64,000 bases of DNA from an uncultured Gammaproteobacteria bacterium (lineage in GTDB: Bacteria; Patescibacteriota; Microgenomatia; UBA12405), in contig CAYUZS010000002.1 of NCBI GenBank assembly GCA_964448705.1, positions 49,577-113,576 of the forward strand, read 5' to 3'. Within the stretch, counting starts at the first letter, position 1, and each line of letters starts with the position of its first letter. A model generated the notes under the pieces. It was not told the DNA's origin. It searched no databases and saw only the letters and a list, made by a program, of their open reading frames with translations. This document shows, one piece after another, positions 1 through 60,603 of the stretch. A program made the translations under genes and the position numbers.

Positions 1-691
1 CTTTACCGGTAAGATGGCCTGAAGTTAGGGCTAAAATAATCTGATCCGAATGATATGAAGAATTCTGGGGGTCGACCAGAGATTCAAAACGCTGTCGGCG
101 ATAGGGAGAAGTTAAAACCAAAATTAAACTGGCAGAAATGGCAAAAAGACATAGGACAAAAAGGGAAACAATTTCACCACCGGAGAGATAATACATGGTA
201 ATTACGGTGGCAGCAATTAAAATAGAAGTGCTTAAATTCGGTTCCAGAATGATTAACACCAGAGGAATGCCAAGATAGATGATTAAGTTTTTAATGTTGC
301 GGGAACGATCGTCAATAAATATTTTGGAAAAAAAGATAATTGCGGTCAGTTTGAATATTTCCGAAGGCTGGATGCCAAAAAAGCCGACATCAAACCAGCG
401 GCGGGCGCCGAGGACCTGATTTCCGAATTGAGGAATCAAAACGAGAATTAATAAACCTAAAGTAAGAAAATAAAATGTCTGAGAATATTTTTTAAGAAAA
501 CTAAATTTAATTTTAGCGGCGACAAAAAAAGCCGCGATGCCGACAACGGACCAAATCAATTGTTTTTTAATAAAATATAATTTGTCTCCGGCAGTGTAGA
601 CGGCTTCGGAAATAGAAGAAAGAGAAATGAAGAGCAGTCCAATCATGAGCAATAGTCCGGTAAGAAAGATCAAATTGGAATGTTTTTTCAT
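1..691 (-). CDS. ftsW: Cell-division lipid II flippase/glycosyltransferase FtsW/RodA (SEDS family), N-terminal part; the 3' end runs off the window
   Basis: Minus-strand ORF with ATG at 689-691 overlapping the stop of the upstream ATP-grasp gene (ATGA). Translation MKKHSNLIFLTGLLLMIG...GARRWFDVGFFGIQPSEIFKL... is polytopic and carries the SEDS G-x-R-R-W...QPSE signature. Not in the ORF track because no stop lies inside the window. Confidence 0.8.
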   Translation of the reverse strand, partial: MKKHSNLIFLTGLLLMIGLLFISLSSISEAVYTAGDKLYFIKKQLIWSVVGIAAFFVAAKIKFSFLKKYSQTFYFLTLGLLILVLIPQFGNQVLGARRWFDVGFFGIQPSEIFKLTAIIFFSKIFIDDRSRNIKNLIIYLGIPLVLIILEPNLSTSILIAATVITMYYLSGGEIVSLFVLCLFAISASLILVLTSPYRRQRFESLVDPQNSSYHSDQIILALTSGHLTGK

Positions 692-1797
692 AAAACGTTA
701 GCAATAACAGCGGGACTGATGGAAACAGGATCGGCAGAAGGAGAGAAGGTGGAAAACTGATGATATTTTTTTATGGTGACACCATTTGCATCTTTACGGG
801 TGATTTCCGAACCAATGAGTTGTGGATCGGTTGATCTGGAAACACCGGAGATATCGGTCGGTAAATTACAAAATTCAGACAGGTGGTAATAAAATAAAGG
901 GGTATAACCGGCATTTTTTTCTATTTCGGTATAAAAGGCAAAAGAGGCAGTAAGACGGGCGTTACATTCCAGAAGATAAACTTTGTCTTCCGAAACTAAA
1001 AAGTCTAAACCGAAAAAACCACGGAAATGTTGGGTTTTAAGGTATTCGGAAAAAGATTCAGTTAAGGCGTTGATCTGAGAAATAATTTCGGCGGGGGCCT
1101 GCGAGGGCCATTGACGGCCGACAGTAGCTAGAGGGTTGTCGGTTAATTGGGAAAGACCGGTATATTGAAGTCCAGGAGGACTGGTGATTAATCCCCTGCC
1201 GGTTAAACAGCAATTATTTATGAGTGAATAACCCGGTAAATATTTGGAAAATTTTACAATAGTACCGGGAGCGATTAACGACTGAACATCGGAAAAATCA
1301 TTTGAAAGATGGGAACTGTTTCCGGCCCAGCCGAAATGGGTTTGGATAACCAGAGGGGAGCCGAAATCCGCCATTGCCCGAGAGTAGTTTTCCTGATTGA
1401 AAGAAATAACTAAGTTAGGGATTTGGGGAAAATTTTGCTGATGACAAATTTCGACAAATTTTATTTTATCTTCGAGATAACGATTGAGAGAAGCGGGATT
1501 AGAAATTAATAGCCAATTGTTTTGAGTACAAAGGTGTTCAATTCTGGCTGAGGGTTTGAAAGGGATTATTGCCGGTTGACGACCGGTTGATTGCGAATGC
1601 TGTTTAATAAATTCAATTGTTTTTGGGTGGGAGAGCAATCTTCCGGAATTTTTTTCCGGCAAACTGATTCCAATTTTTTCCGGAGAAATAGAAATGAAAT
1701 TACTTATTTCCGGAAGACTGATATCAAGAAATTGATCGACGACCAAAAAATAAAAATCATAAGGAGCAAGATTGAGGGTTTCCAGAAGTGAGGTCAT
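688..1797 (-). CDS. ATP-grasp family ligase (RimK/LysX/Ddl-like amino-acid ligase), substrate unknown
   Basis: C-terminal ATP-grasp signature GFFGLDFLVSEDKVYLLECNARLTASF (compare Ddl [25 protein letters not shown] and the RimK LEVNSSPG block). The N-terminal ~90 aa does not look like the Ddl N-domain (no GGxSxE). Confidence 0.6.
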   Translation of the reverse strand: MTSLLETLNLAPYDFYFLVVDQFLDISLPEISNFISISPEKIGISLPEKNSGRLLSHPKTIEFIKQHSQSTGRQPAIIPFKPSARIEHLCTQNNWLLISNPASLNRYLEDKIKFVEICHQQNFPQIPNLVISFNQENYSRAMADFGSPLVIQTHFGWAGNSSHLSNDFSDVQSLIAPGTIVKFSKYLPGYSLINNCCLTGRGLITSPPGLQYTGLSQLTDNPLATVGRQWPSQAPAEIISQINALTESFSEYLKTQHFRGFFGLDFLVSEDKVYLLECNARLTASFAFYTEIEKNAGYTPLFYYHLSEFCNLPTDISGVSRSTDPQLIGSEITRKDANGVTIKKYHQFSTFSPSADPVSISPAVIANVL

Positions 1798-2600
1798 CTT
1801 TTGGTTCCGGTTAATAAAATAAGCGGATAAAGACCAGGATCATATTTTTCGAGGGCTTTTTTATATCCGGCAAAAGCCATAACACCTTCGGGAGAAGTAG
1901 AAAGATTATTAATATCAAAAAAGGCCGAAGCATCTTCAATTTGATGATTGTTGATAACAATACCTGAACCGGAGGAATTTTTGATGGCAGTAATAACTTG
2001 GGATTTTAAGGGAAGGAGTTTAACGGTTAAAGAATCGGTTAATGATTCTTTTTCCGGTTGATAATTTTGGTCGAAGAAGGAAGCGATGGGACAATTATTT
2101 GCCGGCTGAACTGCAAATATTTTAACTGAATCGGCCAGTTTTTGAGAAATACCCAAGAGGGTGGTGCCGCTACCCACCGGTATAAAAATACTGGTAACTT
2201 GAGGAAGTTGGGCCATTATTTCCGAGCCGATTTCCTGATAGCCGATTAAGGCGGCAGGATCTGTTGATTGACGTAAGAGATAACTTTGATTGGTTTTGGA
2301 AAAGCGAAAAGCTTCGGAGATCGGTTTGGGAGTGGTAAAAATTTTAGAATGTTTGATCAGAGCCAATTTTTGGGGATTAATTCCCGGAGAGACGAAGACA
2401 GTTAAAGGGATATTTTTTTGATGACAAAAATAATCTGCAGAAATAGCGGCGTTACCAGTGCTGGAAATGACGGCTGAAGAATAATTGAGTTTTTGTAACC
2501 GGTCAAGTTGGGCAGCAATTGCCCTATCTTTGGCAGAACCGGTTAGGTTTTGATCTTCTCTTTTAAAATAGACTGAATCAAATTTGACTATGGGTGTCAT
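1794..2600 (-). CDS. PLP-dependent enzyme, fold type II (tryptophan-synthase-beta superfamily; threonine synthase / cysteine synthase / serine racemase-like), short form (268 aa)
   Basis: TGSAKDRAIAAQL PLP-lysine motif (compare TGSFKDR of ThrC and relatives). Gly-rich VGSGTT loop later in the protein. 4-nt overlap with the downstream ATP-grasp gene. Confidence 0.6.
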   Translation of the reverse strand: MTPIVKFDSVYFKREDQNLTGSAKDRAIAAQLDRLQKLNYSSAVISSTGNAAISADYFCHQKNIPLTVFVSPGINPQKLALIKHSKIFTTPKPISEAFRFSKTNQSYLLRQSTDPAALIGYQEIGSEIMAQLPQVTSIFIPVGSGTTLLGISQKLADSVKIFAVQPANNCPIASFFDQNYQPEKESLTDSLTVKLLPLKSQVITAIKNSSGSGIVINNHQIEDASAFFDINNLSTSPEGVMAFAGYKKALEKYDPGLYPLILLTGTKR

Positions 2601-2638: not shown

Positions 2639-2806
2639 ATGAATCTAGAAGAAAATAAAATCATCTGTCCTGATTGTCAGGCGGAAATAATTAAACCTGA
2701 AACAATGGCAGTAGGCGACATTCTGGAATGCGCTGAGTGCGGTACTGAAGTGGAAATATTGTCTTTGGAACCTATTAAATACAAAGAGTTGGTTGAAGAA
2801 AAATAA
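2639..2806 (+). CDS. LysW/ArgW-like zinc-ribbon small protein (55 aa); possible amino-group carrier protein homolog
   Basis: MNLEENKIICPDCQAEIIKPETMAVGDILECAECGTEVEILSLEPIKYKELVEEK. It has the CPxC...(17 aa)...CxxCG(T/A)E(V/L)E(I/V) spacing and the hydrophobic pattern of LysW (compare Thermus CPECGAEL...CEDCGAELEVVGLDPLRLE). The ORF exactly fills the only 207-bp gap in the operon, with TATAAT at 2600-2605 and GGA 8 nt before the ATG. Its stop lies 1 nt from the convergent NlpC/P60 stop. The GTG start at 2594 given in the ORF track overlaps the PLP gene start and is unlikely. Confidence 0.45.
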   Translation: MNLEENKIICPDCQAEIIKPETMAVGDILECAECGTEVEILSLEPIKYKELVEEK

Positions 2807-2807
2807 A

Positions 2808-3356
2808 TTATTTCTGTAAATTAAGACGATAAAATCCCTGATGTGGAAATTCGGGATTGTCAATTTCAAATTTTCCCAAAACTACTCCCCTCTTTTTTTG
2901 ATTGCTTTCCAGGTATTCAACCAGATTACCGGTTTTTTTAATGACAAACAAAACATGCCGGCCGTTATTTTGACGAACCAGATCACCGGTAGTTAAAGAG
3001 TCAGAATCAACCGGCGATGATAGAGGGTATGAGGTGAGCATGTCGGCAGAAGTTTTTCGGGGATTGAGACTGGTTTTAAAATAAAAATTTAGGAGGTGAC
3101 AAACGAGTCCGGAGCAATCGATACCGAGATGATGTTTCTTTTGGAAATTGTAAATTTGTGAAGAGGAAAAATTAATTAACTTAACATTTTCGTTGTTGGC
3201 AAATTCGATTGTCTTTAAGGCAATTTCTTTGGCAGAACCTTTTCCAACTAAAGCATTTTCCCCATTATTTTTATACTTTCCCTTATTAATGAAATAGGGA
3301 ATACCAAGATAGGTGTTGATTTCTTGAAGAAGAGAATTTAATTTAGGCCTAACCAT
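2808..3356 (-). CDS. NlpC/P60-family cysteine peptidase/amidase, no signal peptide (cytoplasmic)
   Basis: Catalytic Cys in HHLGIDCSGLVCHLL and downstream His in NGRHVLFVIK, the typical NlpC/P60 Cys-His arrangement. The most plausible start is ATG at 3354-3356 (MVRPKLNSLL), overlapping the mraY 3' end by 19 nt. The N-terminus is not hydrophobic. Confidence 0.55.
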   Translation of the reverse strand: MVRPKLNSLLQEINTYLGIPYFINKGKYKNNGENALVGKGSAKEIALKTIEFANNENVKLINFSSSQIYNFQKKHHLGIDCSGLVCHLLNFYFKTSLNPRKTSADMLTSYPLSSPVDSDSLTTGDLVRQNNGRHVLFVIKKTGNLVEYLESNQKKRGVVLGKFEIDNPEFPHQGFYRLNLQK

Positions 3357-4372
3357 AGAGCAACAACTGCTAATATAATCGCCGCCAGCCAAGCCCGAAA
3401 GACGATTTTTGGTTCTTCCCAACCGATTTTTTGAAAAGTCAGATGAAGCGGTGCTGCCGGCAAAATTTTTCTTTTAAAATAGATTTTACTGAGTATTTGG
3501 ACTGCACTACTCATACCTTCAACGATAAACGGCAGTCCGACGATAAATAAAGGGACTAATTTACCTAATAAAATAGCTATTACGGCGATAGTGGCCCCAA
3601 AAGAAAGTGAGCCGACGTCACCAAGCCAGATACGGGCCGGATAAATATTAAAGTAAAGGAAAGCAATTAAAGCCCCCAACCATAAAGCAAGAAATAGAGA
3701 AATGGGAGTGTCTAAAGAATGGTTGGACAAAAACCAAAAAGCGAATAGAGCGATCATTAATAAACCACAGGAAAGTCCATCCAAACCATCGGTAATATTG
3801 AAAAAGTTAGCAAAGCCGACGATGATGGCTGTATACAAAGGTACAGAAAACCAACCCAAATTAACCGGCCCCAAGAAGGGAATGTAGACAAAATTAATTC
3901 CTAATTGAAAGACAGCATAAATGGAAATAAACAAAGCCAAAACAATCTGAAGAATAAGTTTGTGAACCATGCGAAGACCGAAAAACCCGGTTTTTGAAAA
4001 ACCAAAAAACTTTAAAATATCGTCGTATAGTCCCAGTAAAGCAAATCCGATAAAAGTGAAAAAGATGACGATAATTTCCTGATCGATTCGGTAGTTGCTG
4101 GAGATAAAAATGTTGGAAAAATGAAGCAAGGGAAAGAGGGATAAAAACAGAACAGTTACTGTAACAATGATCAAAAGACCGCCGCCGACCGGGGTGCCTG
4201 ATTTTTGACTATGAAAACGATCAAAAATTGGGGTGCGTTTGTTTTGAAAATCGAGGGTTTTTTGATTTTGACGCTGAAATTTTAGTTTATAGAGAAGATT
4301 GATAAAAGGAACAACAAGAATGCTGTTGGTGAGAAAGGAGAATAATAGTAAACCTAGATATAAATGGATCAC
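3338..4372 (-). CDS. mraY: Phospho-N-acetylmuramoyl-pentapeptide transferase MraY
   Basis: Polytopic membrane protein with KSGTPVGGG and NITDGLDGLSCG (DGLDGL) signatures of MraY/WecA-family polyprenyl-phosphate sugar-phosphate transferases. Sits in a dcw context. Confidence 0.9.
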   Translation of the reverse strand: MIHLYLGLLLFSFLTNSILVVPFINLLYKLKFQRQNQKTLDFQNKRTPIFDRFHSQKSGTPVGGGLLIIVTVTVLFLSLFPLLHFSNIFISSNYRIDQEIIVIFFTFIGFALLGLYDDILKFFGFSKTGFFGLRMVHKLILQIVLALFISIYAVFQLGINFVYIPFLGPVNLGWFSVPLYTAIIVGFANFFNITDGLDGLSCGLLMIALFAFWFLSNHSLDTPISLFLALWLGALIAFLYFNIYPARIWLGDVGSLSFGATIAVIAILLGKLVPLFIVGLPFIVEGMSSAVQILSKIYFKRKILPAAPLHLTFQKIGWEEPKIVFRAWLAAIILAVVALWLGLN

Positions 4373-4378
4373 TTTAGA

Positions 4379-5659
4379 TTAGATTATAAACTGTTTTAAA
4401 TTATTAAGTCCATCGAGACCTCCGGAACTAAAATGAATCAAGAGATCTCCCGGCTTTAGATTAGCGGAAAGATAGGTGAAGATATCGTCTTCAATCGGTA
4501 AATATTTCATTTTTTCACCGAGAACTTTTTGCCAATTAGCAGCTGTTACCCGATCATTTTTACCTGTATTGGCGGAAAAATGAATTTTTGAAAGGATAAA
4601 TTCATGACACATATTCTTGATTTGAGAAAAATCGTTAAGACTTTTTTGATTTTGAAGAAATTTGGCATGAGGCTCGAAATAGACAAAAATCCGACGTTTT
4701 GGATAAGCTTGTTGAAGTGCGGTGAGGGCTGAATAGACCCGGGAACCGGACTGAGCAAAATCGTCATAGATTAAAATATTGTTTTTGGAAGAAATTTTTT
4801 CCAGACGTCGTTTTAATCCGGGAAAAGTAGCGATATATTTTAAAATAATAGTACTTTTTAGGCCTAATTGATGACAAAAAGTATAAGCAGCGGCAATATT
4901 TTGCTGATTATATTGACCGATAAGTTTGGATTTGAAAACTTTGTCTATTTGATAATCAAAGGTCGGGGCCTTGCTTTCAGAAATAATCTTTTTTATTTCA
5001 CTGTCCTGTCCGTTATAAACAATAAATCCGTTTTCGGGTACATTTTTAATTAATTGCCGAAAGGCTTCAAAATTTTTTTCGGAGGTGGAATAAGATTCTT
5101 TATGTTCCCATTGAGCACTGGTGAGGATTAAATATTTGACAGGATAATAGAGAAATTTTGCTTTGGTATCCAGCCCGTTGATGGATTCATCGGCTTCAAC
5201 TACAGACCAGTTTGAAGTGGTGGAATTGATGGAAGGAGAATGATTAACAAGCTGGCCGCCAAAAAAATAATTTGGATGGTAGCCGGATTTATCCATAATC
5301 CAGGAAACAAGGGCGGTGATAGTGCTTTTGCCGTATGATCCGGCGACTAAAATAGAGTTTCCCCTAATTAAACTTTTAGCGATGAATTCAGTGGCGGTGG
5401 TGTAGGGAATATTAAGTTTTTTTATTTGTTCCCATTCTTCGACACATTTAGAAAAAGACAAAAAAGATGAACCAACAATGACGGCATCAATATGGGTGTT
5501 AATAGGAGTTTTATTCAACGGAATATCGGCGATAAGTTGACTGATGGGAGGATAGATTTTATCTTGGTCTGAACCGGTGACCTCGTGACCCTGCTGTTTT
5601 AAAATCATGGCAATTTGAGCTGTCATGACTCCGGCGATACCAAGAATATGAATATGCAT
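4379..5659 (-). CDS. Mur ligase family protein, Mpl/MurC-like (UDP-N-acetylmuramate:peptide or L-Ala ligase)
   Basis: N-terminus MHIHILGIAGVMTAQIAMILKQQGHEVTGSD closely resembles the Mpl/MurC Rossmann N-domain (E. coli Mpl MRIHILGICGTFMGGLAMLARQLGHEVTGSD as recalled). P-loop VAGSYGKSTIT. 426 aa. Confidence 0.7.
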   Translation of the reverse strand: MHIHILGIAGVMTAQIAMILKQQGHEVTGSDQDKIYPPISQLIADIPLNKTPINTHIDAVIVGSSFLSFSKCVEEWEQIKKLNIPYTTATEFIAKSLIRGNSILVAGSYGKSTITALVSWIMDKSGYHPNYFFGGQLVNHSPSINSTTSNWSVVEADESINGLDTKAKFLYYPVKYLILTSAQWEHKESYSTSEKNFEAFRQLIKNVPENGFIVYNGQDSEIKKIISESKAPTFDYQIDKVFKSKLIGQYNQQNIAAAYTFCHQLGLKSTIILKYIATFPGLKRRLEKISSKNNILIYDDFAQSGSRVYSALTALQQAYPKRRIFVYFEPHAKFLQNQKSLNDFSQIKNMCHEFILSKIHFSANTGKNDRVTAANWQKVLGEKMKYLPIEDDIFTYLSANLKPGDLLIHFSSGGLDGLNNLKQFII

Positions 5660-5664
5660 ATTTA

Positions 5665-6261
5665 TCAGTGATTAATATAGGGAACCCAAGAATTATTATA
5701 ATAGTATTCAAAACCAGGAAAACTGCGTTTGTAAAATCCTAATTTAGTCTCCGGATTAAATCTGCCTAAATAAGTGTATTTTAGCTGTTGTTCGTGGGAA
5801 TCGATGACAACCTGTAATGGACAGCGAATAGGGAGATCCTGATGAGAATATTTAGGATCGTAAAATAGGTAGGCGACATGGGAAATTGTCGGGGAAAAAT
5901 AACAAACGGCATAGGCGGCGACAACATCATGGTCGTAAAAAATATAAAGTCGATTGAAGATATGGTCGGTGAAAACTTTTTTTATGGAACTGGTGGGAAA
6001 ATCCCAGTTTAATTCCTTTACCCAATCATGAATTTGTTTTTGGAGCTTTGGGGTGTAAACAAAATCGGAAAGATTAACTGTTTTGTAAGTGATGTTTTCA
6101 GTTTTTTTTAAAATACGACGATTTTCGGAATTTAAGACAAAATTTTCCAAATTAGAACGACAGCTGCTTTCCTGATAAAAAATATTCTTTTCGTTGCGTT
6201 GAGGCAAAAGACCAAGATCGTAATTTTCTTCGATAGTAAGTTCGTTTTTAATGTTAAACAT
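5665..6261 (-). CDS. Hypothetical protein with Bpt/ATE-C-like (aminoacyl-tRNA--protein transferase family, GNAT fold) motifs
   Basis: HVAYLFYDPKY and KYTYLGRFNPE resemble the two conserved blocks of bacterial Bpt / eukaryotic ATE1 C-domain (recalled as ..SAVYTFYDP.. and ..YLYLGYWI..). 198 aa. 8-nt overlap with upstream murE-like gene. Low-confidence family call. Confidence 0.35.
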   Translation of the reverse strand: MFNIKNELTIEENYDLGLLPQRNEKNIFYQESSCRSNLENFVLNSENRRILKKTENITYKTVNLSDFVYTPKLQKQIHDWVKELNWDFPTSSIKKVFTDHIFNRLYIFYDHDVVAAYAVCYFSPTISHVAYLFYDPKYSHQDLPIRCPLQVVIDSHEQQLKYTYLGRFNPETKLGFYKRSFPGFEYYYNNSWVPYINH

Positions 6262-7522
6262 GCTGTTTTCTTAATCTAAAAGCGGATCTAAAAGCTTCGG
6301 ATTCGGACCAGGGATATTCAGTTTTACCATGAAGAATGGTAGTTTCGTGACCTTTACCGCAGGCGATTATAGTATCGCCCGGAGAGGCAAGTTTAACAGC
6401 TAAATTAAAAGCATCCTGACGATTGGGAATATCGTAATAAACGAAAGATTTATTTTGGAGACGATCCGGATCTATACCTTCAATTATCTGTGAATTAATA
6501 TCTTCAACTTTTTCATTACGGGTATCATCGGCGGTAATAATAGCAATGTCAGCTATTTTTGACACCTCGTAACCCATAATCGGGCGTTTGCTTTGGTCGC
6601 GGCCGCCGGTAGCGCCGAAAATAACAATCAACTTACCTGAAGTAATCTGACGAAGTGAAGAAAGGGTGTTTTTTAAGGCATTTGGAGTGTGGGCAAAATC
6701 GACGATAGTCCGAAAACGAAAACGATTGGAGACCTCTTCCCGGCGACCTTTAATTTCCGGAAAATGACGAATAGTGTTAATTAAAATTTGGGGATCAAAT
6801 TTTAACCAATTTAAAATTCCGTAGGCAGTCAAAATATTATAAATTTGATAACGATAGTTACTGTCGGTTTTGAAAGTTAATCCATTGACCGAAAAAGAAA
6901 GAAGGTCTGATTTATCGGAAATATTTTTAGCCTGATAATCGGATTTTTTTTCGATACTATAGGTGGTAAAAGGAACTTTAAGAGCAGGACTGATTTGAGA
7001 AAAAGTAGAATCATCTTTATTTAGAACAGCATAGCGGCACTTTTTAAAAATGAGACTTTTAGTGGAAACATAGTCGTCCATATCTAAAAAATCATCAAGG
7101 TGTTCATGAGAGGTATTGGTGATAGCGGCGACTTTAAAATTACAGCCATAAAATCGAAATTGGTCCAAGGCATGAGCAGTAACTTCGATAACGACGTGAG
7201 TAACTCCCTGATCTACCATCTGACGCAGTAAAAACTGAACTTTTGAGGAATCGGGAGAAGTGGTGTGGAGACCGATAGTTGATTCCTGGGTACCGATTTT
7301 AGAGCCGACAGTACTGATGAGTCCTGCCTTAATACCGGCGTTTAGTAAACATTGGTGAATAAGAACTGAGGTGGTGGTTTTACCATCAGTTCCGGTGATA
7401 CCAATGATAATCAGTTTCCGGGAAGGAAAGCGATAATAAAAGTTATAATACAAACTTTTGGGAAAATGCCAAAGAATATTTTTTATTTTCTGTTTAACTC
7501 TTTTTAATTTACGCTTAAACAT
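6254..7522 (-). CDS. murE: Mur ligase, MurE-like (UDP-MurNAc-L-Ala-D-Glu:diamino-acid ligase family) with a truncated N-terminal domain
   Basis: P-loop IIGITGTDGKTTT and C-terminal ITADDTRNEKVEDI (MurE DNPR(S/N)E-like block). Only ~37 aa precede the P-loop, versus ~100 in canonical MurE. Position after ftsI is as in dcw clusters. Confidence 0.65.
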   Translation of the reverse strand: MFKRKLKRVKQKIKNILWHFPKSLYYNFYYRFPSRKLIIIGITGTDGKTTTSVLIHQCLLNAGIKAGLISTVGSKIGTQESTIGLHTTSPDSSKVQFLLRQMVDQGVTHVVIEVTAHALDQFRFYGCNFKVAAITNTSHEHLDDFLDMDDYVSTKSLIFKKCRYAVLNKDDSTFSQISPALKVPFTTYSIEKKSDYQAKNISDKSDLLSFSVNGLTFKTDSNYRYQIYNILTAYGILNWLKFDPQILINTIRHFPEIKGRREEVSNRFRFRTIVDFAHTPNALKNTLSSLRQITSGKLIVIFGATGGRDQSKRPIMGYEVSKIADIAIITADDTRNEKVEDINSQIIEGIDPDRLQNKSFVYYDIPNRQDAFNLAVKLASPGDTIIACGKGHETTILHGKTEYPWSESEAFRSAFRLRKQHV

Positions 7523-7535
7523 AGGTTCATTTGAA

Positions 7536-9179
7536 TTATAACAGAGGAGTGATTTTAGAGGCTAATTCAAACCATATCGGAGCGGCGGTGCTTGAACCCC
7601 AAGGTGAACTTTTGGGATTGTTGATAGTGACAATCATAGTAAATTTGGGATTTTGACAAGGACTAAAACCGACATAAGAAGCATTGGTAAAAGATTCGGA
7701 ATAGCCGCCGGTGACAGCAACCTGAGCGGTACCGCTTTTGGCACAAACTTCAAGATCTTTTGGTCTAAATTGGTTAACGACACCGTTTTCAACGGCGTAT
7801 TTAAGAATTTCTTTAATGGTGTCAGTTGTAGACTTCTTGAATACTTCCGAAGGTTGGGGTAAATTATTGTTTATGATTTGGCTGCGGTCTTCAAAGTATT
7901 CAACTAAATGCGGCTGGGACATTAAGCCATCATTGGCCAAAGTATTGAAAGCCTGAAGCATTTGAATTTGAGTGACAGCAAAACCCTGGCCAAAAGAAGC
8001 GGTAGCCAAATCAATTTCCGGCCAAACGGTTTTTTCCAACGGTTTAACTTCTCCCTGAAGATCGATTCCGGTTTTTCGATTTAGACCAAGCGATTGGAAA
8101 TATTGTTGAAAAGTATTTAAACCAAGAGTTTCGATAATATAGCTCATGCCGATGTTGTCGGAATTTTTGATGATATCCTGAAGAGATGAATCGGGATGAT
8201 ACGAATTGTCCCAGTTTCCGATGGAATATTGGCCAATTTGATGGGGTTGATTACATTTAGTACAAACATAATCGGTAGAGATAGTCCGACTATTAAGAGC
8301 CATAGAGACAACCAGTGGTTTAAAAATTGAACCAGGCTCAAAAAGATCGGCAATTATCGGGTTTTTATACATAGCACTGGGAGTGGCGGAAGATGTGGCG
8401 ACAAAGCTGGCCATGGCAATTATGCCTCCGGTTTGGGGATTCATGATGGTAATCGAGCCGGAGTCGGCGTCGTATTTTTTTAGGCCTTCGGATAGAGAAT
8501 TTTCAGCAAGATACTGGATCTGACGATTCAAAGAAATATGTAAATTTCTCCCATCCTGAGGTTCAATATACCACCCCGGTTTATTCAAAACGGTTTGTCC
8601 GGTGGCGTCAATCCCCTGCCAGGAAAAACCATCACGACCGGAAAGTTGTTTTTGATAATAGCCTTCGATACCGCCAAGAGTTTTTGAGCCAAGGATAAGA
8701 GAGCCTAAATTTTTTTCCGGATAATAACGGGAATTAATTGAAGAAAAAGTTATCCCGGGATCTTTTAAAGAGTTTTTTTCTTCATAAGAAAAATTATCTT
8801 TTAAGGTTAACCATTTCTGATTAGGATTTAGAAGAAATTTATTCAATTGTTCCAAGTCTTCAGTAGAAATTTGAGGATGGACATGTTGAATTAAATTAAC
8901 GATTTCTTCGGGTTTTGTTTTAAGATCCGGCTTGTATAGCGAAAGCTGATAAAAAGTTTGATTAATGGATAAAGGAAAACCTGAAGCATCGTAAATTTTT
9001 CCAAACTGAGGCAAAACAACATTTGGCTTATAACTTTGATTGATAATTTTTTGGCTGAATTCCGGATTTTTGATTATCTGCCAGTAGAACAACCTACCGA
9101 TGACGATAAAATAACAAAAAATTAAGGTGAAGGTGACGATTTTTAAACGTTGAGAAAACATTTTAGTTAAGATTAACAA
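7536..9179 (-). CDS. ftsI: Class B penicillin-binding protein / peptidoglycan D,D-transpeptidase FtsI
   Basis: N-terminal TM, then SxxK (PGSIFKP), SxN-like and KSGTA motifs of PBP transpeptidase. Position between ftsL-like and murE. Confidence 0.85.
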   Translation of the reverse strand: MLILTKMFSQRLKIVTFTLIFCYFIVIGRLFYWQIIKNPEFSQKIINQSYKPNVVLPQFGKIYDASGFPLSINQTFYQLSLYKPDLKTKPEEIVNLIQHVHPQISTEDLEQLNKFLLNPNQKWLTLKDNFSYEEKNSLKDPGITFSSINSRYYPEKNLGSLILGSKTLGGIEGYYQKQLSGRDGFSWQGIDATGQTVLNKPGWYIEPQDGRNLHISLNRQIQYLAENSLSEGLKKYDADSGSITIMNPQTGGIIAMASFVATSSATPSAMYKNPIIADLFEPGSIFKPLVVSMALNSRTISTDYVCTKCNQPHQIGQYSIGNWDNSYHPDSSLQDIIKNSDNIGMSYIIETLGLNTFQQYFQSLGLNRKTGIDLQGEVKPLEKTVWPEIDLATASFGQGFAVTQIQMLQAFNTLANDGLMSQPHLVEYFEDRSQIINNNLPQPSEVFKKSTTDTIKEILKYAVENGVVNQFRPKDLEVCAKSGTAQVAVTGGYSESFTNASYVGFSPCQNPKFTMIVTINNPKSSPWGSSTAAPIWFELASKITPLL

Positions 9180-9417
9180 CAGTGTTAACAGGAGTATAAT
9201 TTTTTCCTTCGGTTTGAGAAAAAAGAGTGGAAAGAGAGTTAAGTTCGGAAAGATTTATTTCCAACTGCTGATTGATAATTGTGGCCTGAGTAAGATTCTG
9301 ATTAGAAACATTGGCCAACTGACTTAGATCAACAACCTTAATAGAGTAGATGATGGAAAAAATTACCTGAAGACAAAAGGAAAAGGCAGCCAATATGGTC
9401 AATGGTTTAAGACTCAT
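9163..9417 (-). CDS. FtsL-like small bitopic cell-division protein
   Basis: 84 aa with one N-terminal TM followed by a heptad-like Leu/Asn-rich stretch. Sits between rsmH and ftsI as ftsL does in dcw clusters. No sequence-level proof. Confidence 0.4.
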   Translation of the reverse strand: MSLKPLTILAAFSFCLQVIFSIIYSIKVVDLSQLANVSNQNLTQATIINQQLEINLSELNSLSTLFSQTEGKNYTPVNTVVNLN

Positions 9418-10286
9418 TAATCTATTCTATATGATCTGAGGACTGATGATCGAGATAAAGGATTATTTTTTATTTCAGAAAAAGACGGCAGAATGGCTTT
9501 GGTATTTGAGGCGGGAAAATGCTGACGAATAAATTGTTTAACCAGACGGTCTTCACCGGAATGAAAGGAAATAACAGCTACAACACAACCGGGAGAAAAT
9601 TTTAAAGTGGCCTGAAGAGCATTTTTTAGATTAGCAAATTCGTCGTTAACCGCGATTCTGAGGGCCATAAAAACTTTGGTAGCCGGATCTATTTTACTAT
9701 GGATGTGTTTTTCCTGGTAGTATTTACGGATAATGTCAGCTAATCTTTTTGCCGATTTTATCGGTTTATATTGTCTTTCTGAAATAATCCTGATGACAAG
9801 CGGTTTACTGAATTTTTCCTGGGCTAATTTGGAAAAAATATCATATAACTGCTGAAAGTCGTAAGTGTTGATAATTTCTTCAGCAGTAACAGTTTGAGTT
9901 TCTGGATCAAGCCTCATATCCAGTGAATCCGGATCGTTAAAAGAAAAACCACGACCGACACTTTTTTGCTGTCCGGAACTTAGTCCAAGATCAAAAAGAA
10001 TACCGTCAATTTTTGCCGGTATTTGATGACCAATAAGATTTTCCAATTGATTAAAATTAAAATGAAGAGGAATAAACTTTTGGGAAAGACCTAAATCGGA
10101 AATTCTTTGTTGAGCGATCGCCAAATTTACAGGATCCTGATCCAGTCCATAGACAATGCCGCCATGATTGATTATTTCCAGGGAATGACCACCATTTCCG
10201 GCTGTAGCATCGACATAAATACCACCGGGAACGACGTTAAGAACCTTAATTACTTCGTTTACCAGTACCGGTTGATGAAACTCCAT
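9417..10286 (-). CDS. rsmH: 16S rRNA (cytosine1402-N4)-methyltransferase RsmH/MraW
   Basis: MEFHQPVLVNEVIKVL...GIYVDATAGNGGHS is the characteristic RsmH N-terminus and SAM-binding motif. Confidence 0.9.
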   Translation of the reverse strand: MEFHQPVLVNEVIKVLNVVPGGIYVDATAGNGGHSLEIINHGGIVYGLDQDPVNLAIAQQRISDLGLSQKFIPLHFNFNQLENLIGHQIPAKIDGILFDLGLSSGQQKSVGRGFSFNDPDSLDMRLDPETQTVTAEEIINTYDFQQLYDIFSKLAQEKFSKPLVIRIISERQYKPIKSAKRLADIIRKYYQEKHIHSKIDPATKVFMALRIAVNDEFANLKNALQATLKFSPGCVVAVISFHSGEDRLVKQFIRQHFPASNTKAILPSFSEIKNNPLSRSSVLRSYRID

Positions 10287-10915
10287 TACTGATTTTGATA
10301 ATTACCTACCGGCGAACTCTGAGTACTGCCATAGACTGAATAACCGCCGCGATAGTTTTTAAGAAGAAGATAATAATTGCTGCCGGAAAGTTTTGATTTA
10401 AGAGGAACAGAAAAAGAACTATCCGTTAAAGCCAAAGAACCGGCTTTGTTGAGATCAGCAGTTGATTTGAGGGTAAACAAAGTTTCGTAAGTTGACATTT
10501 GGCCGTTTTTATCGATAAAGTTAAGTGTCATCGTTCCCCCGGTTACACCTTTATCATAGCTATATTTACAGCCATTAGTACAGCTTTCCGTGCCTAAAAG
10601 CAGTTTTCTTTCGATGGTTTTGGTAATTTCTTTTAGGGTATCACCTACTCCTTTTTCAATTTCGGCGCCATTATCACTGGCGTTGTATAGAATTTCATAT
10701 TCAATTGAAGAAATTGAATCGGGAATATCGACAATTTTTAGGGTTAAATAGTGGCCGTCAGCACTGGGAGTGAGACTGATTAAAGGTCGTTGATCAAGAG
10801 GCATTTCGACAACTCTTAATGCTGGAGTCGGAGTGACGGTGGTAGCGGATTTTTTGGCACCGCAACCAGCTAATAATAAACCAGTGGCAATTAAGGTTAG
10901 TATTTTTTTCTTCAT
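10286..10915 (-). CDS. Putative lipoprotein of unknown function
   Basis: MKKKILTLIATGLLLAGCGAKK gives a signal peptide with an LAGC lipobox. It occupies the slot where mraZ usually sits upstream of rsmH. Confidence 0.5.
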   Translation of the reverse strand: MKKKILTLIATGLLLAGCGAKKSATTVTPTPALRVVEMPLDQRPLISLTPSADGHYLTLKIVDIPDSISSIEYEILYNASDNGAEIEKGVGDTLKEITKTIERKLLLGTESCTNGCKYSYDKGVTGGTMTLNFIDKNGQMSTYETLFTLKSTADLNKAGSLALTDSSFSVPLKSKLSGSNYYLLLKNYRGGYSVYGSTQSSPVGNYQNQ

Positions 10916-10916
10916 G

Positions 10917-12236
10917 TTAAGAGTTTAGTTGTTGAGCAAGCCAGTTGTCAACTTCAGAAGCGGGAATACGCACCTGAGTCATAGTGTCCCGATCTCGAAT
11001 TGAAACAGTGTTGTCTTCCAGAGTTTGATAATCGACAACTAAACACCAGGGAGTTCCGATTTCGTCCTGTCGACGATATTTTTTACCGATATTACCGCTG
11101 TCATCCCAATCGAGGGAATATTTTTGAGAAAGCGACTGATAGAGCTCGTCAGCTTTGGTAACCAATTCCGGTTTGTTGGCAGCCAGTGGGAAAATAGCCA
11201 TTTTATAGGCAGAAACTTGAGGTTTAATTTGCAGCCAGGTTCGAATTTCACCATTCTCCAAAGTGTCTTCATGATAAGCATCGAGCAACATGAAGAAAAA
11301 GCTGCGATCAACTCCACCGGAGGTTTCGGTGATATGAGGTAAATATTTTTCATGAGTAACAGGATCGAGATAGGATAAATCCTGATTACTGAATTGACTG
11401 TGTTGAGTTAAATCATAATCTGAACGCCAGTGAATTCCTTCCATTTCTGACCAACCCCAGGGAGCGTTATATTCAATATCAAAAGCTTTTTTGGCGTAGA
11501 AAACGAGTTCGTCTTTTTCGTGCTGTCGAAAACGAAGGTTATCGGATTGGTTAAACATTTTTTTATACCAATTCATACGCTCTGCTTTCCAATATTCATA
11601 CCACTTGTCCATTTCTGAGGGATGAACGAAGTATTGAATATCCCATTGTTCAAATTCCCGGGTGCGGTACAAAAAGTTTTTGGGAGTTATTTCGTTTCGA
11701 AAAGCTTTTCCGATCTGAGCGATACCGAAAGGGATTTTGACACGGGAGGAATCGACTATATTTTTGAAATCAAGATAAATAGTTTGACAGGCTTCACCCC
11801 GAAGATAGGCATGCATTTTTTCGCCTTCAATGACACCAATGTCGGTTTCAAAAAGAATATTATATTTACGGCCCTCGGTGAATTCTCCATCGCATTCCGG
11901 ACATTTAGCAGCGTTGTCGATTAAATCCGGACGAAAGCGTTTATGGCACGATTTGCATTCGACCATAATATCGGCAAAGTTTTTAACATGCCCCGAAGCT
12001 TCCCAAACTCTGGGATGGGTAATTATTGAACCATCAATTAGAACTATGTCCCGACGGCGGGTAACGTTGTCGCGGATCCAAAGATTTTTCCAATTGTATT
12101 TCATCAACGCTCCGACCGGACCGTAATCATAGAAACCCTGAACACCTCCGTATATTTCACTGTTCTGAAAAATAATTCCCCGACGTTTGCAGAGAGAAAC
12201 AATTTTGGAAACGATATCGTTTTGAGTATTTGCCAT
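10917..12236 (-). CDS. glyS: Glycine--tRNA ligase (class II, homodimeric GlyRS type)
   Basis: IFQNSEIYGG...HPRVWEASGHV...FRNEITP...ETSGGVDR class-II aaRS / GlyRS motifs. 439 aa. Confidence 0.9.
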   Translation of the reverse strand: MANTQNDIVSKIVSLCKRRGIIFQNSEIYGGVQGFYDYGPVGALMKYNWKNLWIRDNVTRRRDIVLIDGSIITHPRVWEASGHVKNFADIMVECKSCHKRFRPDLIDNAAKCPECDGEFTEGRKYNILFETDIGVIEGEKMHAYLRGEACQTIYLDFKNIVDSSRVKIPFGIAQIGKAFRNEITPKNFLYRTREFEQWDIQYFVHPSEMDKWYEYWKAERMNWYKKMFNQSDNLRFRQHEKDELVFYAKKAFDIEYNAPWGWSEMEGIHWRSDYDLTQHSQFSNQDLSYLDPVTHEKYLPHITETSGGVDRSFFFMLLDAYHEDTLENGEIRTWLQIKPQVSAYKMAIFPLAANKPELVTKADELYQSLSQKYSLDWDDSGNIGKKYRRQDEIGTPWCLVVDYQTLEDNTVSIRDRDTMTQVRIPASEVDNWLAQQLNS

Positions 12237-12421: not shown

Positions 12422-12745
12422 TTATTTTTCACCACTTTTGAAGTAATAGCCAATAACAAAACCAAGAGAAGAGCCAACAATAGAACCAATTATTGAGAGT
12501 ATATCTTTTAAATCAATTAGTAGTTCGTTATTTTTAATGGTATTGTAGATTAAATAATTGTATGTTGGTATGAGAATAACAACAAGACCTATCAGTATGA
12601 AGAAACCCCATACGAAAACATTAGCAATTCTTGCCCTTTGATGATCAATATGTTCTTTTGGATTATATCTAGCTGGTTTGAGGTTGCTTTCAATAGTACT
12701 TTGTAATTTTGCAAAAGACTCTTGAAGATTTGTTTCTCTATTCAT
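12422..12745 (-). CDS. Small membrane protein (2 predicted TM), unknown function
   Basis: 107 aa, AT-rich relative to its neighbours. 4-nt overlap with the upstream 80-aa ORF. Hydrophobic segments FVWGFFILIGLVVILIP and IIGSIVGSSLGFVIGYYF. Confidence 0.3.
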   Translation of the reverse strand: MNRETNLQESFAKLQSTIESNLKPARYNPKEHIDHQRARIANVFVWGFFILIGLVVILIPTYNYLIYNTIKNNELLIDLKDILSIIGSIVGSSLGFVIGYYFKSGEK

Positions 12746-12984
12746 TGTTCGAGAAATTCTTTAGATAGTTCAACATAGCTATTTACTAGAGTTTCTGTCT
12801 TCTTTAGGATAATTTCGATATTTTGTTGCATTTTTTCGATCTCATCTTTTAGTTTTTGGTCTTGTATAGATATAGCTGATTTTTTTAAGAGAGCATATTG
12901 AATAGCAAGTTCTTGGAGTGCTTCAACATTTTCTTTAAGAGCAGAGTTAACTTGATTACTTTTATCGACTATCTGTTGGTTCAT
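12742..12984 (-). CDS. Small coiled-coil protein, unknown function
   Basis: 80 aa with heptad-like charged/hydrophobic periodicity (..LKENVEALQELAIQYALLKK..IEKMQQNIEIILKK..). Translationally coupled to the next ORF. Confidence 0.3.
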   Translation of the reverse strand: MNQQIVDKSNQVNSALKENVEALQELAIQYALLKKSAISIQDQKLKDEIEKMQQNIEIILKKTETLVNSYVELSKEFLEQ

Positions 12985-55589: not shown

Positions 55590-56311
55590 TGATAGTTGGT
55601 ATTACCGGCTCCAATGGGTTTATTGGCAGAAAATTGGTTTCTTATTTACGTCAGAAAGGAATTGAGGTAGCTGCAGGAACTAGAGAAAATGCTGATGTTA
55701 CCGATAAAGAGAAGGTAGACAAATTTGTTAAAGAGGTTAAGATAATTGTTCATTTGGCAGCATATCAAAATGTGTTTGATGACAGTTATAATAAATTTGA
55801 AGCAGTAACGGTTTTGGGAAGTAAAAATGTCTTAGAAGCAGCCAAAAAATATAATAAAAAAGTGATTCTGTTTTCCAGTGAAGTAGTTTTTGGAAACAAA
55901 AGTGATTTTTATACAAAATCAAAAAAAGCTCAGGTAAGATTGGCAAAAAAATATAAGCAGGTAGAGATTGTGTATCCACCGGTGGTGATAGATTTTAAAC
56001 AAAAAAAGAAATGGTGGCAGCTAACATATGGAGGAGTAATGATGATGGCCGGAGATAGAAACAAAAATATCAACTACATAGATATGGAAGATTTGTGCAG
56101 ATTTGTTTATGAAAAAATCACTTCAAATACAAAAACAAGACTGCCGATAAAAACTTTAACAAAAACAGAATTTTTGAAAAAAATGAAAAAAGAAATCGGT
56201 GGGTGGCAGCTGCCGTTTAGAATTTCTAAGCAGGGACTAAAAGGATTGAATCTTGTTTTAAATCACACAAAATACGGAAGACTGATAGAATCAATATTAG
56301 AAAATGAGTAA
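55586..56311 (+). CDS. Short NAD(P)-dependent epimerase/dehydratase (atypical SDR)
   Basis: VGITGSNGFIGRKL Rossmann motif and YTKSK (YxxxK). Confidence 0.6.
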   Translation: MMIVGITGSNGFIGRKLVSYLRQKGIEVAAGTRENADVTDKEKVDKFVKEVKIIVHLAAYQNVFDDSYNKFEAVTVLGSKNVLEAAKKYNKKVILFSSEVVFGNKSDFYTKSKKAQVRLAKKYKQVEIVYPPVVIDFKQKKKWWQLTYGGVMMMAGDRNKNINYIDMEDLCRFVYEKITSNTKTRLPIKTLTKTEFLKKMKKEIGGWQLPFRISKQGLKGLNLVLNHTKYGRLIESILENE

Positions 56312-57806
56312 AAAGAAACAGATAAGAGTGATGCTGATTCATCCGCCGGGAACAGTTTACGGATCGGGAATCCTGGGGCCGAGTATACCAATGGGTTTGT
56401 TGTTTATTTCTTCGTATTTAAAAAGCAAAGGAGTGGAAGTTAAATTTTTGGATGCTTTGGCCGGTGACAGTAAAAGGATGATACGAAACGGTCGAGGGCG
56501 ACGATATGGGATGAGCAAAAGAAGAATTTATAAAGCAATAAAAGAATTTAATCCGGAGGTAGTGGGTATTGGCTGTATGTTTACTGCTTACTATAATGAT
56601 GTGGCGGAAATAGCTGAAATTGTGAAATCGGTTAACAAAAAAATCAGAGTAGTGGTGGGAGGGTCTCATGTCAGTGTTGATCCGGAAGGAGTTTTGAAAT
56701 GCAGAAATATTGATGTAGCAGTATTTGGCGAAGGTGAGATAACTATGATGGAGTTATTAAGCAGACGCAAATTGGAAAACATTAAAGGAATAGCCTACAG
56801 AGAGGGAAGAAAAATTATAAAAAATGAACAAAGGGAATTAATTAAAAACCTGGACAGTTTACCGATGGCAGACTGGGAGTCATTGAAAATTGATGAATAT
56901 ATAATGGGAAGCAGTTTTAATATGAGAAAGCCGGTTTATCCGTTAATTTCTTCCAGGGGCTGTCCGGGACATTGTTTATATTGTTCTGTAAATGCAGTAT
57001 GGCATCACTGCTGGCGGGGAAGGAGTCCGGAAAATGTAGTTGATGAAATGGAATATTTAATAAAAAACTATGGAGCAAGGGAGTTTGCTTTTCAGGATGA
57101 TAGTGTTTCTGTGGATAGAATCAGATTTGAAAAAATCTGCGATGAAATAATTAAAAGAAAATTAGATATTAAATGGACAACTCCTAACGGAATTGCCCAC
57201 TGGACTTTAACAAAACCTATTTTGAAGAAAATGAAACAAGCCGGCTGCTATCGGATTACTTTTGGGATAGAATCCGGTGACCCGGAGATGAGAAGATGGG
57301 TAGGAAAACCGTATAGCTTAGAACAGGCAAAAGAATTAACTAAATATGCGAACAGTTTGGGTTTTTGGACATTGGCAACAAACATAGTCGGTTTTCCGTA
57401 TGAAACTATGGATAATCTGAAAAATACCCTTGACTTTGCGATTAAGTCAGATGTCGATTTGGCTTTCTTTTTTCGTTTAAGTTTAAGACCCGGAACGGAA
57501 ATTTATAAAATTTTTGAAAAAGAAAAATGGCTGATAAAAGACAAAAAGTTTATGTTTTCAGAAAATGCCACTTTCAGAACGAAATATTTTACCGGCGAGG
57601 AGGTGGTGGCGATTCAAAATAAATTGTACCGGTCTTTTTTGATACGCAGATGGCTGACTCCCAAAAGTATTTTTAGAGTGATTAATAAATTTAGAAGTTG
57701 GGAAGACGTTCGATATATTCTGCACATTGCGCTGGTAGGTATTAAACTGAATTTTAAATTGTTGATAAACCGAAAAGAGGTAACTTCAGGGGTTTTAAAA
57801 GTTTAG
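56304..57806 (+). CDS. B12-binding-domain radical SAM enzyme (class B radical SAM methyltransferase-like)
   Basis: N-terminal cobalamin-binding-like domain (IRVMLIHPP...YLKSKGVEVKFLD) and CPGHCLYCS CxxxCxxC cluster. Confidence 0.8.
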   Translation: MSKKKQIRVMLIHPPGTVYGSGILGPSIPMGLLFISSYLKSKGVEVKFLDALAGDSKRMIRNGRGRRYGMSKRRIYKAIKEFNPEVVGIGCMFTAYYNDVAEIAEIVKSVNKKIRVVVGGSHVSVDPEGVLKCRNIDVAVFGEGEITMMELLSRRKLENIKGIAYREGRKIIKNEQRELIKNLDSLPMADWESLKIDEYIMGSSFNMRKPVYPLISSRGCPGHCLYCSVNAVWHHCWRGRSPENVVDEMEYLIKNYGAREFAFQDDSVSVDRIRFEKICDEIIKRKLDIKWTTPNGIAHWTLTKPILKKMKQAGCYRITFGIESGDPEMRRWVGKPYSLEQAKELTKYANSLGFWTLATNIVGFPYETMDNLKNTLDFAIKSDVDLAFFFRLSLRPGTEIYKIFEKEKWLIKDKKFMFSENATFRTKYFTGEEVVAIQNKLYRSFLIRRWLTPKSIFRVINKFRSWEDVRYILHIALVGIKLNFKLLINRKEVTSGVLKV

Positions 57807-59575: not shown

Positions 59576-60603
59576 AGAATACCTTTATTTTTTGAACAAT
59601 TTCGACAAAAAGAGTAGTGTTGATGATTCTGACGAAATTTTTTAGCCGAATCCCCGTTCCAAACAGAATTAGAATCCTGACGGACAATATTGCCGAATGA
59701 AAAACGGGAAAGAGCAGTATCGTAATCTATAAACTGAGGAATTATGCAGCAGGGAAGAATATCGCCTGAGGCAGTAATTTGTGGATATATCCATGGATAA
59801 TAGCACTGTTTATTCTTTATAACGGTGGAAGGAAATGTGACTTTAAGATGATGATTTTGGGCGTAGCTTTCTAAATTTTGAAAAATAGTCTTTATTTTAC
59901 CTGATTCATAGAGATGGTTAATGTAAGGTGAAATTTGATGAATGTTTTGAGTACTAACAGTGTCGATGTTCAGAGAATCGGCCAGATCGAATATTTTAGT
60001 TAAATGCCGAATATCTTTTAAGTTGAAGTCTAAAAGGACAACATTAATAATAATTTGAGTCGGAAGAGAATTTTTTACAACAAACTGTTTTAGAAGTTTG
60101 AGGTTTTTAACTAAAAGAGAATAATCGGCACCGGCTCTGATTTGAGAATATTTTTTAGGTATTCCGGATTCCATGGAGATTTTTATATATTTGACAGGAT
60201 ATTTTTTAAGATAGTAAAGGTGCTTTTTATTCAATAATTGAAGATTGGTGATAAAGGTGGTGGAGATTTTATTTTGAGAACAGAGACGAAGCAGTTGGCC
60301 GAAATACGGATTGAGAAGAGTTTCTCCCATGCCGGTTAGATTTATCGATATCGGTTTTAATTTTTTGATGATTAGGGATAATGATTCGGGAGTGAGAAAT
60401 TTTAACGGCTGGTGACTTTTGTTTAAGGAACACATCCGACAATGCAGATTGCAGACGGCCGATGGTTCGATTTGAATTTCCATAGGTAATGAGGCCTGTT
60501 TTGTTTTAAAGAAAGCATGAAGATAACTATTTAAAGTCGGAATAAAATGACGGGGAGGAAAGCTGAATAAATTAATAATTCCTTTTAAATATGGTGAATT
60601 CAT
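59572..60603 (-). CDS. Radical SAM enzyme with C-terminal SPASM/twitch-like Cys-rich domain
   Basis: CNLHCRMCS CxxxCxxC. C-terminal cysteines in ...ILPCCIIPQF...YSFCRNCSKNKG. Confidence 0.7.
   Translation of the reverse strand: MNSPYLKGIINLFSFPPRHFIPTLNSYLHAFFKTKQASLPMEIQIEPSAVCNLHCRMCSLNKSHQPLKFLTPESLSLIIKKLKPISINLTGMGETLLNPYFGQLLRLCSQNKISTTFITNLQLLNKKHLYYLKKYPVKYIKISMESGIPKKYSQIRAGADYSLLVKNLKLLKQFVVKNSLPTQIIINVVLLDFNLKDIRHLTKIFDLADSLNIDTVSTQNIHQISPYINHLYESGKIKTIFQNLESYAQNHHLKVTFPSTVIKNKQCYYPWIYPQITASGDILPCCIIPQFIDYDTALSRFSFGNIVRQDSNSVWNGDSAKKFRQNHQHYSFCRNCSKNKGIL

Follow-up and report, generated by a model that had tools for sequence, protein, structure and literature searches.

We analysed a 64,000-nucleotide stretch of DNA (hereafter the window; contig CAYUZS010000002.1, positions 49,577 to 113,576) from an uncultured bacterium of the Microgenomatia lineage UBA12405, whose division and cell wall (dcw) cluster carries an unusual Mur ligase gene of the Mpl branch. 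The gene lies at 4379..5659 (-), begins with ATG and encodes 426 aa comprising a UDP-binding N-domain, an ATP-binding middle domain and a C-domain. It is flanked by murE (6254-7522) and mraY (3338-4372), which is the slot usually held by murF, and it is closely packed there, with its start 5 nt past the stop of the upstream gene and its end 6 nt ahead of the GTG start of mraY. All genes of the murE-to-mraY stretch are separated by spacers of 5-6 nt or share short overlaps. In public annotations the proteins of this cluster appear as Mpl, "Mur ligase family", "ATP-grasp" or hypothetical.

The protein matched each of the three Pfam domains of Mur ligases, the N-terminal one (PF01225) at residues 2-95. 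Among NCBIfam profiles the murC family (TIGR01082) scored highest (202 bits over two stretches; cut-off 335.1), followed by mpl (TIGR01081; 167.3 bits; cut-off 388.7) and murD (62 bits), with murF (TIGR01143) reaching 28.9 bits over the middle domain only and the pseudomurein pMur families at most 57 bits. Because of its Pfam N-domain and this ranking of scores, the protein is a ligase of the MurC/Mpl type and not MurF, as a preliminary description of the locus had stated; MurF was rejected as an identity, since the N-terminus is the Rossmann-type domain of MurC and Mpl. The P-loop (GSYGKST), the EADE motif, His186, an Arg-Arg pair and an Asp-Asp pair are intact and are conserved in relatives. 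The UDP-binding signature of the N-domain, which in Mpl consists of GI[CG]GxxM, Asp31 and Tyr35, is represented by GIAGVMT, the Asp of GSD and an IYPP motif, all three of which are found family-wide.

We compared the ligase with Mpl and MurC in several ways. By tblastn, E. coli Mpl aligned over the full length of the ligase with 169 bits, compared with 117 bits for E. coli MurC, and identity to classical Mpl proteins was 27-29%. The top solved relative was 3hn7 (134 bits), which we take to be the Psychrobacter Mpl of Das et al., with MurC structures at ~100 bits. We searched 1.84 billion cluster representatives exhaustively with HMMER and recovered 492 proteins at E ≤ 1e-30, and more than 500 homologues were counted at 90% clustering. 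When the best 150 representatives at 50% clustering were scored against the E. coli references, 143 favored Mpl over MurC, and in 137 of those 143 the motif that follows E[AG]DE would fit the Mpl loop insertion. This insertion, (S/T)AFFDKRSK after EADEY, has been described as specific to Mpl and not found in MurC through MurF (PMC3060825). In a neighbor-joining tree with 100 bootstraps, the clade of the ligase was recovered at 100% and a wider clade of the type found in the candidate phyla radiation (CPR) at 94%; the latter joined classical Mpl at 72%, and the MurC sequences fell outside this grouping.

A motif table showed that the ligase and Mpl have in common IYPP, DDFA, EP, S-x-GG and KRRLE. 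At the site of the Mpl loop, after EADE, the ligase has an insertion that is four residues shorter and degenerate, INGLDTKAKF versus AFFDKRSKF (EADESINGLDTKAKF), whereas the loop is of full length in deeper CPR-type relatives. The ligase has Ser at the position of Mpl Tyr182. The SGP motif of Mpl and the equivalents of His376/His377 and Arg404-Thr407 are not conserved, and in the C-domain FAHH, EPRSNT and SNG of Mpl read FAQS, EPHAKF and SSG, in which F, A, E, P, S and G alone are kept. The L-Ala-binding H-R-x-x-R and GAGD motifs of MurC were likewise not found in the ligase, which has EPHAKFLQ against QPH[RT]x[ST]RT[RK], DDFAQS against DDYAHH and SSGG against GAGD. In the Haemophilus influenzae enzyme (HiMurC), L-Ala is bound by His376, Arg377, Arg380, Tyr346 and His348 (PMC3060825). 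A relocated murC is disfavored by the grouping with Mpl in the tree, the Mpl scores and the loss of the MurC motifs. From these sequence comparisons we conclude that the ligase is best regarded as a divergent member of the Mpl branch that would form a third specificity class. Because Mpl residues of the C-domain are lost and the mpl score falls under its cut-off, the substrate is probably not the classical tripeptide.

To place the gene in context, we scanned 185,579 species-representative genomes, which gave 80 loci, and mapped their genes by our own open reading frame (ORF) calling and blastp. Sixty-four of these are species-level loci of the target clade (41-57% identity), with the labels Shapirobacteria, Woesebacteria or Microgenomates or with a mistaken label, and 16 are deeper relatives (29-36% identity). 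Many GTDB representative metagenome-assembled genomes with the Microgenomates-type cluster (those of loci L013, L014 and L016, among others) are titled "uncultured Gammaproteobacteria bacterium", which is almost certainly a submission labelling artefact. The conserved gene order is rsmH, ftsL, a penicillin-binding protein (PBP) gene, a short murE, a Bpt-like gene, the Mpl-like ligase gene, murA at many loci, mraY, a P60-like gene, a LysW-like minigene, a pyridoxal phosphate (PLP) enzyme gene, an ATP-grasp gene, ftsW and murG. The short murE, Bpt-like and Mpl-like genes are contiguous in 61 of the 64 target-clade loci and in 9 of the 16 deeper ones. At 51 of the 64 loci murA directly follows the ligase gene. 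The block from mraY through the P60-like, LysW-like (on the opposite strand), PLP and ATP-grasp genes to ftsW is complete in 44 of 64, and the other loci mostly stop at contig edges. In Dojkabacteria and another CPR lineage the Mpl-like gene adjoins murB and murA. UDP-activated N-acetylmuramic acid (UDP-MurNAc) would fit as the substrate of the ligase, because the gene adjoins murA in 51 loci or murB in the other CPR lineages. Literature searches on CPR bacteria, Microgenomates or Patescibacteria in combination with mur genes, Mpl or LysW found no description of this cluster; the paper on a complete Microgenomates genome calls peptidoglycan synthesis "essentially complete" and says nothing further on it (PMC7143001).

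The canonical partners of the ligase were absent from this cluster. Within ±10 kb of the target-clade loci, murC, murD, murF and ddl occurred in none of the 64. In the window, tblastn searches with E. coli MurC, MurD, MurE, MurF, MurG, DdlB, Mpl, MraY and FtsW recovered only the short MurE, the ligase, mraY (3338..4372 (-), the phospho-MurNAc-peptide transferase gene, also identified by Pfam and NCBIfam) and the 5′ part of ftsW, which runs off the window start (2..682 (-)). Queries with CPR MurA, MurG, MurF-like and Ddl proteins gave no further match, and tblastn together with Pfam searches of the remaining ORFs ruled out that the window conceals a further Mur ligase. Two contigs of the same population (L093 and L094), which encode an identical ATP-grasp protein, continue from ftsW into murG, a 125-aa ftsQ-like gene, ftsA, ftsZ and ileS. 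The absence of murG, which the preliminary description had listed with the other missing genes, is therefore an artefact of the window edge. No murC or ddl was found downstream of murG on these contigs, and ~10 kb past the other end of the window (L095) there are further glycosyltransferases without a Mur ligase. The reported absence of murC, murD, murF and ddl thus holds for the window and for ~10 kb past either end, and in the ~85 kb of the host organism's DNA that was searched we found no Mur ligase besides the short MurE and the Mpl-like ligase.

The MurE encoded here (6254..7522 (-), 422 aa) lacks the N-terminal UDP-binding domain. It scores 323 bits against TIGR01085, above the cut-off, with no match to PF01225 and with an alignment that begins at about position 95 of the 486-position profile. 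Its start lies ~35 residues ahead of the P-loop, and in ~70 orthologues the P-loop falls at residues 36-70, compared with residue 116 in E. coli. The domain is lost in every related locus with a complete gene, and the orthologues have in common a conserved start, M-x-QK-x-KN..WHLPKS. All catalytic motifs are kept; in place of DNPR stands DDTR, which retains the Arg.

A similar truncation is seen in the MurF-like gene that 7 of the 16 deeper loci have kept, in 5 of those 7 between murA and mraY. In 5 of the 7 the murF profile matches only from position ~63-76, the copy of L076 has a non-homologous N-terminus, and in the Dojkabacteria copy (L077, 1215-2666) the N-domain gives way to a membrane region at the N-terminus. 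The MurF-like ligases of L071, L072, L073, L075 and L079 (e.g. L073:13617-14831), which are without the N-domain, have a Cys-rich C-terminal tail, GCxxxxCHxYxxCxxC; the family of the L073 protein numbers at least 120 clusters that are 51% or more identical. One deeper locus, L076, also keeps ddl. The retention of MurF-like genes in deeper relatives suggests that murC and murD were the first to be replaced by the new module. The N-domain is the UDP-binding part of these enzymes, and Mur-type ligases without it, such as MurT, use substrates other than nucleotides (PMC8210147). Because the short MurE and the MurF-like proteins lack this domain, the Mpl-like protein would be the sole ligase of the cluster built to bind UDP-MurNAc.

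Between the short murE and the ligase gene, and translationally coupled to both, lies a gene at 5665..6261 (-) for a putative aminoacyl-tRNA-dependent transferase of 198 aa. The protein matches Pfam ATE_C (3.8e-6; 27.9 bits, cut-off 25) and the NCBIfam arginyltransferase profile (1.6e-8), with NCBIfam scores of at most 34.5 bits against cut-offs of at least 170, and it retains the motif YLG...YK..FPGFE. The earlier assignment of this gene as Bpt-like would extend to the family, in which 25 of 28 orthologues match ATE_C. A single-sequence AlphaFold2 model of the protein was not usable (predicted local distance difference test, pLDDT, 40). Enzymes of the Bpt/ATE family transfer an amino acid onto an N-terminal Asp or Glu. 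The L-Ala to Glu bond has this regiochemistry, and the Bpt-like protein would therefore fit it. Fem enzymes show that aminoacyl-tRNA can feed peptidoglycan peptides, but we know of no Bpt/ATE-type enzyme in peptidoglycan synthesis. The CPR lineages in which the ligase gene adjoins murB carry a true FemAB-family gene beside mraY and the MurF-like gene and a Bpt-like gene separately (arrangement noted at L077:224-1243 (-), L077:11621-12742 (-) and L081:2046-3125 (+)), and because the Dojkabacteria locus holds both, the Bpt-like protein is unlikely to be simply a substitute for Fem.

On the other side of mraY lie four more genes. An NlpC/P60-like cysteine peptidase (2808..3356 (-), 182 aa as called, with the ORF continuing to 3422) has a weak Pfam match to NLPC_P60 (5.7e-4), and its D-C-S-G motif and His, the catalytic Cys and His, are invariant in 27 orthologues. 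It is predicted to be cytoplasmic, with no evident signal peptide on inspection of the N-terminus. A zinc-ribbon minigene of 55 aa (2639..2806 (+)) runs antisense to the operon and matches PF21344 (1.4e-8). In the window and in the orthologous loci L002-L079 it is always antisense, between the P60-like and PLP enzyme genes. The preliminary description had called the minigene carrier-like. Its zinc ribbon is indeed LysW-like, but true LysW carriers end in Glu, whereas the C-terminus here is ...EL[IV]EEK, with the EEK end present in 57 of 59 orthologues, and the lysW profile gives 30.6 bits against a cut-off of 53.2. With Glu-Lys-COOH, the protein ends much as a Lys-type stem tripeptide does. 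The PLP enzyme (1794..2600 (-), 268 aa) is of fold type II, with a Pfam PALP match (1.4e-36) and a TGSAKDR lysine motif, and among solved structures it is closest to serine racemase, Ser/Thr dehydratases and CysM. An ATP-grasp ligase of 369 aa (688..1797 (-)) was placed by profiles and an AlphaFold2 model (pLDDT 96) in an undescribed subfamily. In Foldseek searches this model had only the generic fold of biotin carboxylase, PurK and PurT (TM-score 0.55-0.63), with no specific affinity for LysX or Ddl, and RimK gave 16.9 bits. Family profiles of the Bpt-like, ATP-grasp and P60-like proteins, run against PDB sequences, yielded weak or generic matches alone. The arrangement of a PF21344 minigene near an ATP-grasp ligase and a hydrolase is that of LysW/LysX systems; the differences are the EEK tail in place of a C-terminal Glu, an ATP-grasp protein that is not LysX/RimK-like and a cluster without LysZ, LysY or LysJ genes.

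Upstream of murE the dcw order continues with a class B PBP gene (7536..9179 (-)), an ftsL-like gene (9163..9417 (-)) and rsmH (9417..10286 (-)). Directly upstream of rsmH, at 10286-10915 (-), is a conserved 209-aa lipoprotein-like ORF with an LLAGC lipobox and no Pfam match, which occupies the usual place of mraZ in essentially all related loci. Further upstream lie a class II aminoacyl-tRNA synthetase gene (10917-12236, which looks GlyRS-like by sequence), two small ORFs (12422-12984) and recO. From ~15560 to 56300, and on past position 64000 (L095), lies an island of GT1, GT2 and GT4 glycosyltransferases with Wzy-like, PMT-like, flippase, ABC-2 exporter, asparagine synthase and methyltransferase genes, which probably serves a secondary cell-wall polysaccharide or glycosylation. 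The glycosyltransferase region also contains a trio of genes for a B12-binding radical S-adenosylmethionine (SAM) protein (56304-57806 (+)), a tetratricopeptide repeat protein (57809-59575 (+)) and a SPASM radical SAM protein (59572-60603 (-)), and two further B12-radical SAM genes lie just past the window end (L095). Each 2-kb bin of the window has a positive GC skew (0.05-0.41), and the cumulative skew rises monotonically despite several switches in gene orientation, which recalls the strand composition disparity known from a Microgenomates genome (PMC7143001).

We considered what pathway these genes could serve. Our leading reading, which we hold tentatively and at a little less than even confidence, is that the Mpl-like ligase attaches to UDP-MurNAc, en bloc, a stem peptide assembled off the nucleotide. 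The ligase would then carry out the only stem-peptide step of this lineage on a sugar nucleotide, using ATP to activate the lactyl carboxylate of UDP-MurNAc for coupling to the N-terminal amine of a preassembled peptide. Made without UDP, this peptide would have a minimum of two residues and would probably comprise the L-Ala-Glu-diamino-acid core or more. For the substrate, the sequence of steps and the part played by each neighbor, we infer the following. The MurE without an N-domain would form the bond from the gamma-carboxylate of Glu to the diamino acid, and the Bpt-like aminoacyl-tRNA transferase would add the N-terminal residue onto an acidic N-terminus, the two bonds of MurC and MurD being replaced in this way. 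The P60-like, LysW-like, PLP and ATP-grasp block, which stands in the murD slot, might supply D-Glu or the diamino acid, or a peptide scaffold. In deeper relatives a MurF-like ligase without an N-domain could add the D-Ala-D-Ala part.

Assembly off the nucleotide would explain why the ligase belongs to the Mpl branch, why domains have been lost, why the slots of murC and murD stand empty and why the three genes are tightly coupled. The preliminary description had raised such an attachment of the whole stem peptide as one possibility; the idea gains from the MurE without a UDP-binding domain, from the 64 conserved loci without murC, murD, murF or ddl nearby and from the ATE_C matches among Bpt-like orthologues, while the presence of all five residues in the attached peptide is not established and deeper relatives keep MurF-like genes and, in one case, ddl. 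To our knowledge, the only wall pathway with late en-bloc peptide attachment is that of pseudomurein, in which methanogens use pMurC, pMurD and pMurE to build the cross-linking peptide on a non-glycan carrier and join it to the glycan later. That route is archaeal and employs UDP-activated Glu and pMur ligases of its own, and the pMur scores of our ligase are low.

Several observations weigh against en-bloc attachment. Canonical murC, murD, murF and ddl genes could lie elsewhere in the genome, and in other organisms MurC-type genes do occur on short contigs without dcw genes (P0175, P0236 and P0261). The ligase is under the NCBI mpl cut-off (167 vs. 388.7 bits) and has lost several Mpl C-domain residues, such as HH to QS and EPRSNT to EPHAKF. 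MurT, the known precedent for a Mur ligase without the N-domain, works on lipid II and not on a free peptide (PMC8210147), and one MurF-like homologue (L077) is membrane-anchored. Mpl itself weakly accepts L-Ala, and a murC(ts) mutant was complemented by overexpressed Mpl (PMC3060825), so that a MurC-like role is chemically possible for the ligase. The EEK tail leaves the LysW-like protein a putative carrier, and the functions of the neighbors are those suggested by family and position alone. Finally, the addition of D-Ala-D-Ala in the target clade is not accounted for by any of the readings considered here.

A second reading, which we regard as rather unlikely although several observations would suit it, is that the Mpl-like enzyme replaces MurC and adds the first residue only (L-Ala, Gly or Ser), the stem being finished later, possibly after MraY on lipid-linked intermediates. 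MurC belongs to the same family as the ligase, has the same architecture and nucleotide substrate and gave its top NCBIfam score, and the ligase is the sole MurC/Mpl-family gene seen, with the usual murC slot after murG empty. Its C-domain motifs are unlike those of classical Mpl, and L-Ala is usable by Mpl (PMC3060825). Completion on lipid would also explain a MurE and MurF without the UDP-binding domain, in the manner of MurT, a two-domain enzyme that works on membrane-bound lipid II (PMC8210147), and the membrane region at the N-terminus of the Dojkabacteria MurF-like protein. The parallel with MurT/GatD has limits, however, because MurT amidates lipid II and does not extend a peptide, whereas the short MurE is clearly a MurE and has no GatD partner (PMC8210147 describes the lipid II amidation system). 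The ligase also differs from MurC in its insertion at the site of the Mpl loop, YPP motif, L-Ala motifs (H-R-x-x-R and GAGD are not kept), score below the murC cut-off and position within the Mpl branch. Moreover, no MurD-like enzyme is at hand for the second residue, a one-residue precursor would have to suit MraY, and the Bpt-like partner would be left without a role in the core stem.

It is also conceivable, but in our judgment improbable, that murC, murD, murF and ddl are encoded elsewhere and that the gene is a salvage Mpl, recycling stem peptides of the cell or its host while neighboring enzymes trim or repair scavenged peptides. Membership in the Mpl branch speaks for this, as Mpl has the same three-domain architecture, gave the best full-length match and is the sister clade in the tree. 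Cytoplasmic NlpC/P60 peptidases serve peptide recycling, and MurC-type genes can sit outside dcw clusters in other organisms. CPR bacteria are moreover known to depend on scavenging (PMC7143001). The genomic setting weighs against salvage, however. Classical mpl is a dispensable recycling gene located elsewhere, whereas in 64 species-level loci this ligase gene is embedded in the dcw operon, where it is translationally coupled to its neighbors from murE to mraY, and in each of these loci all three canonical ligase slots are vacated; the host organism's DNA searched here likewise offers no other set of ligases. A parallel pathway on the nucleotide is hard to reconcile with the loss of the UDP-binding domain from the MurE of this clade.

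More doubtful still is a carrier-protein route that depends in part on ribosome and tRNA, in which the ...Glu-Glu-Lys tail of the LysW-like protein would be the scaffold or precursor and no MurC, MurD or canonical MurF would be needed. In this scheme the ATP-grasp ligase, the PLP enzyme and the MurE without an N-domain (together with the MurF-like ligase in lineages that have it) would lengthen or modify the EEK tail. The P60-like peptidase would release the product, the Bpt-like enzyme would cap its acidic N-terminus, and the Mpl-like ligase would finally join it to UDP-MurNAc in a single step. A substrate outside peptidoglycan, such as another UDP-sugar acid or a secondary cell-wall polymer, with an incidental position in the cluster, would suit the sub-cut-off family scores, the unique C-domain motifs and the large glycosyltransferase island nearby, but it is very unlikely given the tight embedding between murE and mraY, the adjacency of murA or murB across lineages and the conserved catalytic and UDP-binding motifs.

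Bacteria that make peptidoglycan are all held to use the MurC-D-E-F ladder on UDP-MurNAc, a classic target of antibiotics. Here, the division cluster of a large uncultured lineage is without three of the four ligases, and the remaining one is without its nucleotide-binding domain. If the canonical genes are encoded elsewhere, the finding shrinks to a salvage ligase in an unusual place. The pathway implied by the ligase and its cluster could, on the other hand, be much more unusual than the gene itself. If this lineage relies on an Mpl-type enzyme and a tRNA-dependent transferase, it would provide the first bacterial case of en-bloc stem-peptide attachment as a primary route. The scoring of "complete peptidoglycan pathways" in CPR genomes would then change, and unusual stem-peptide chemistry might emerge.

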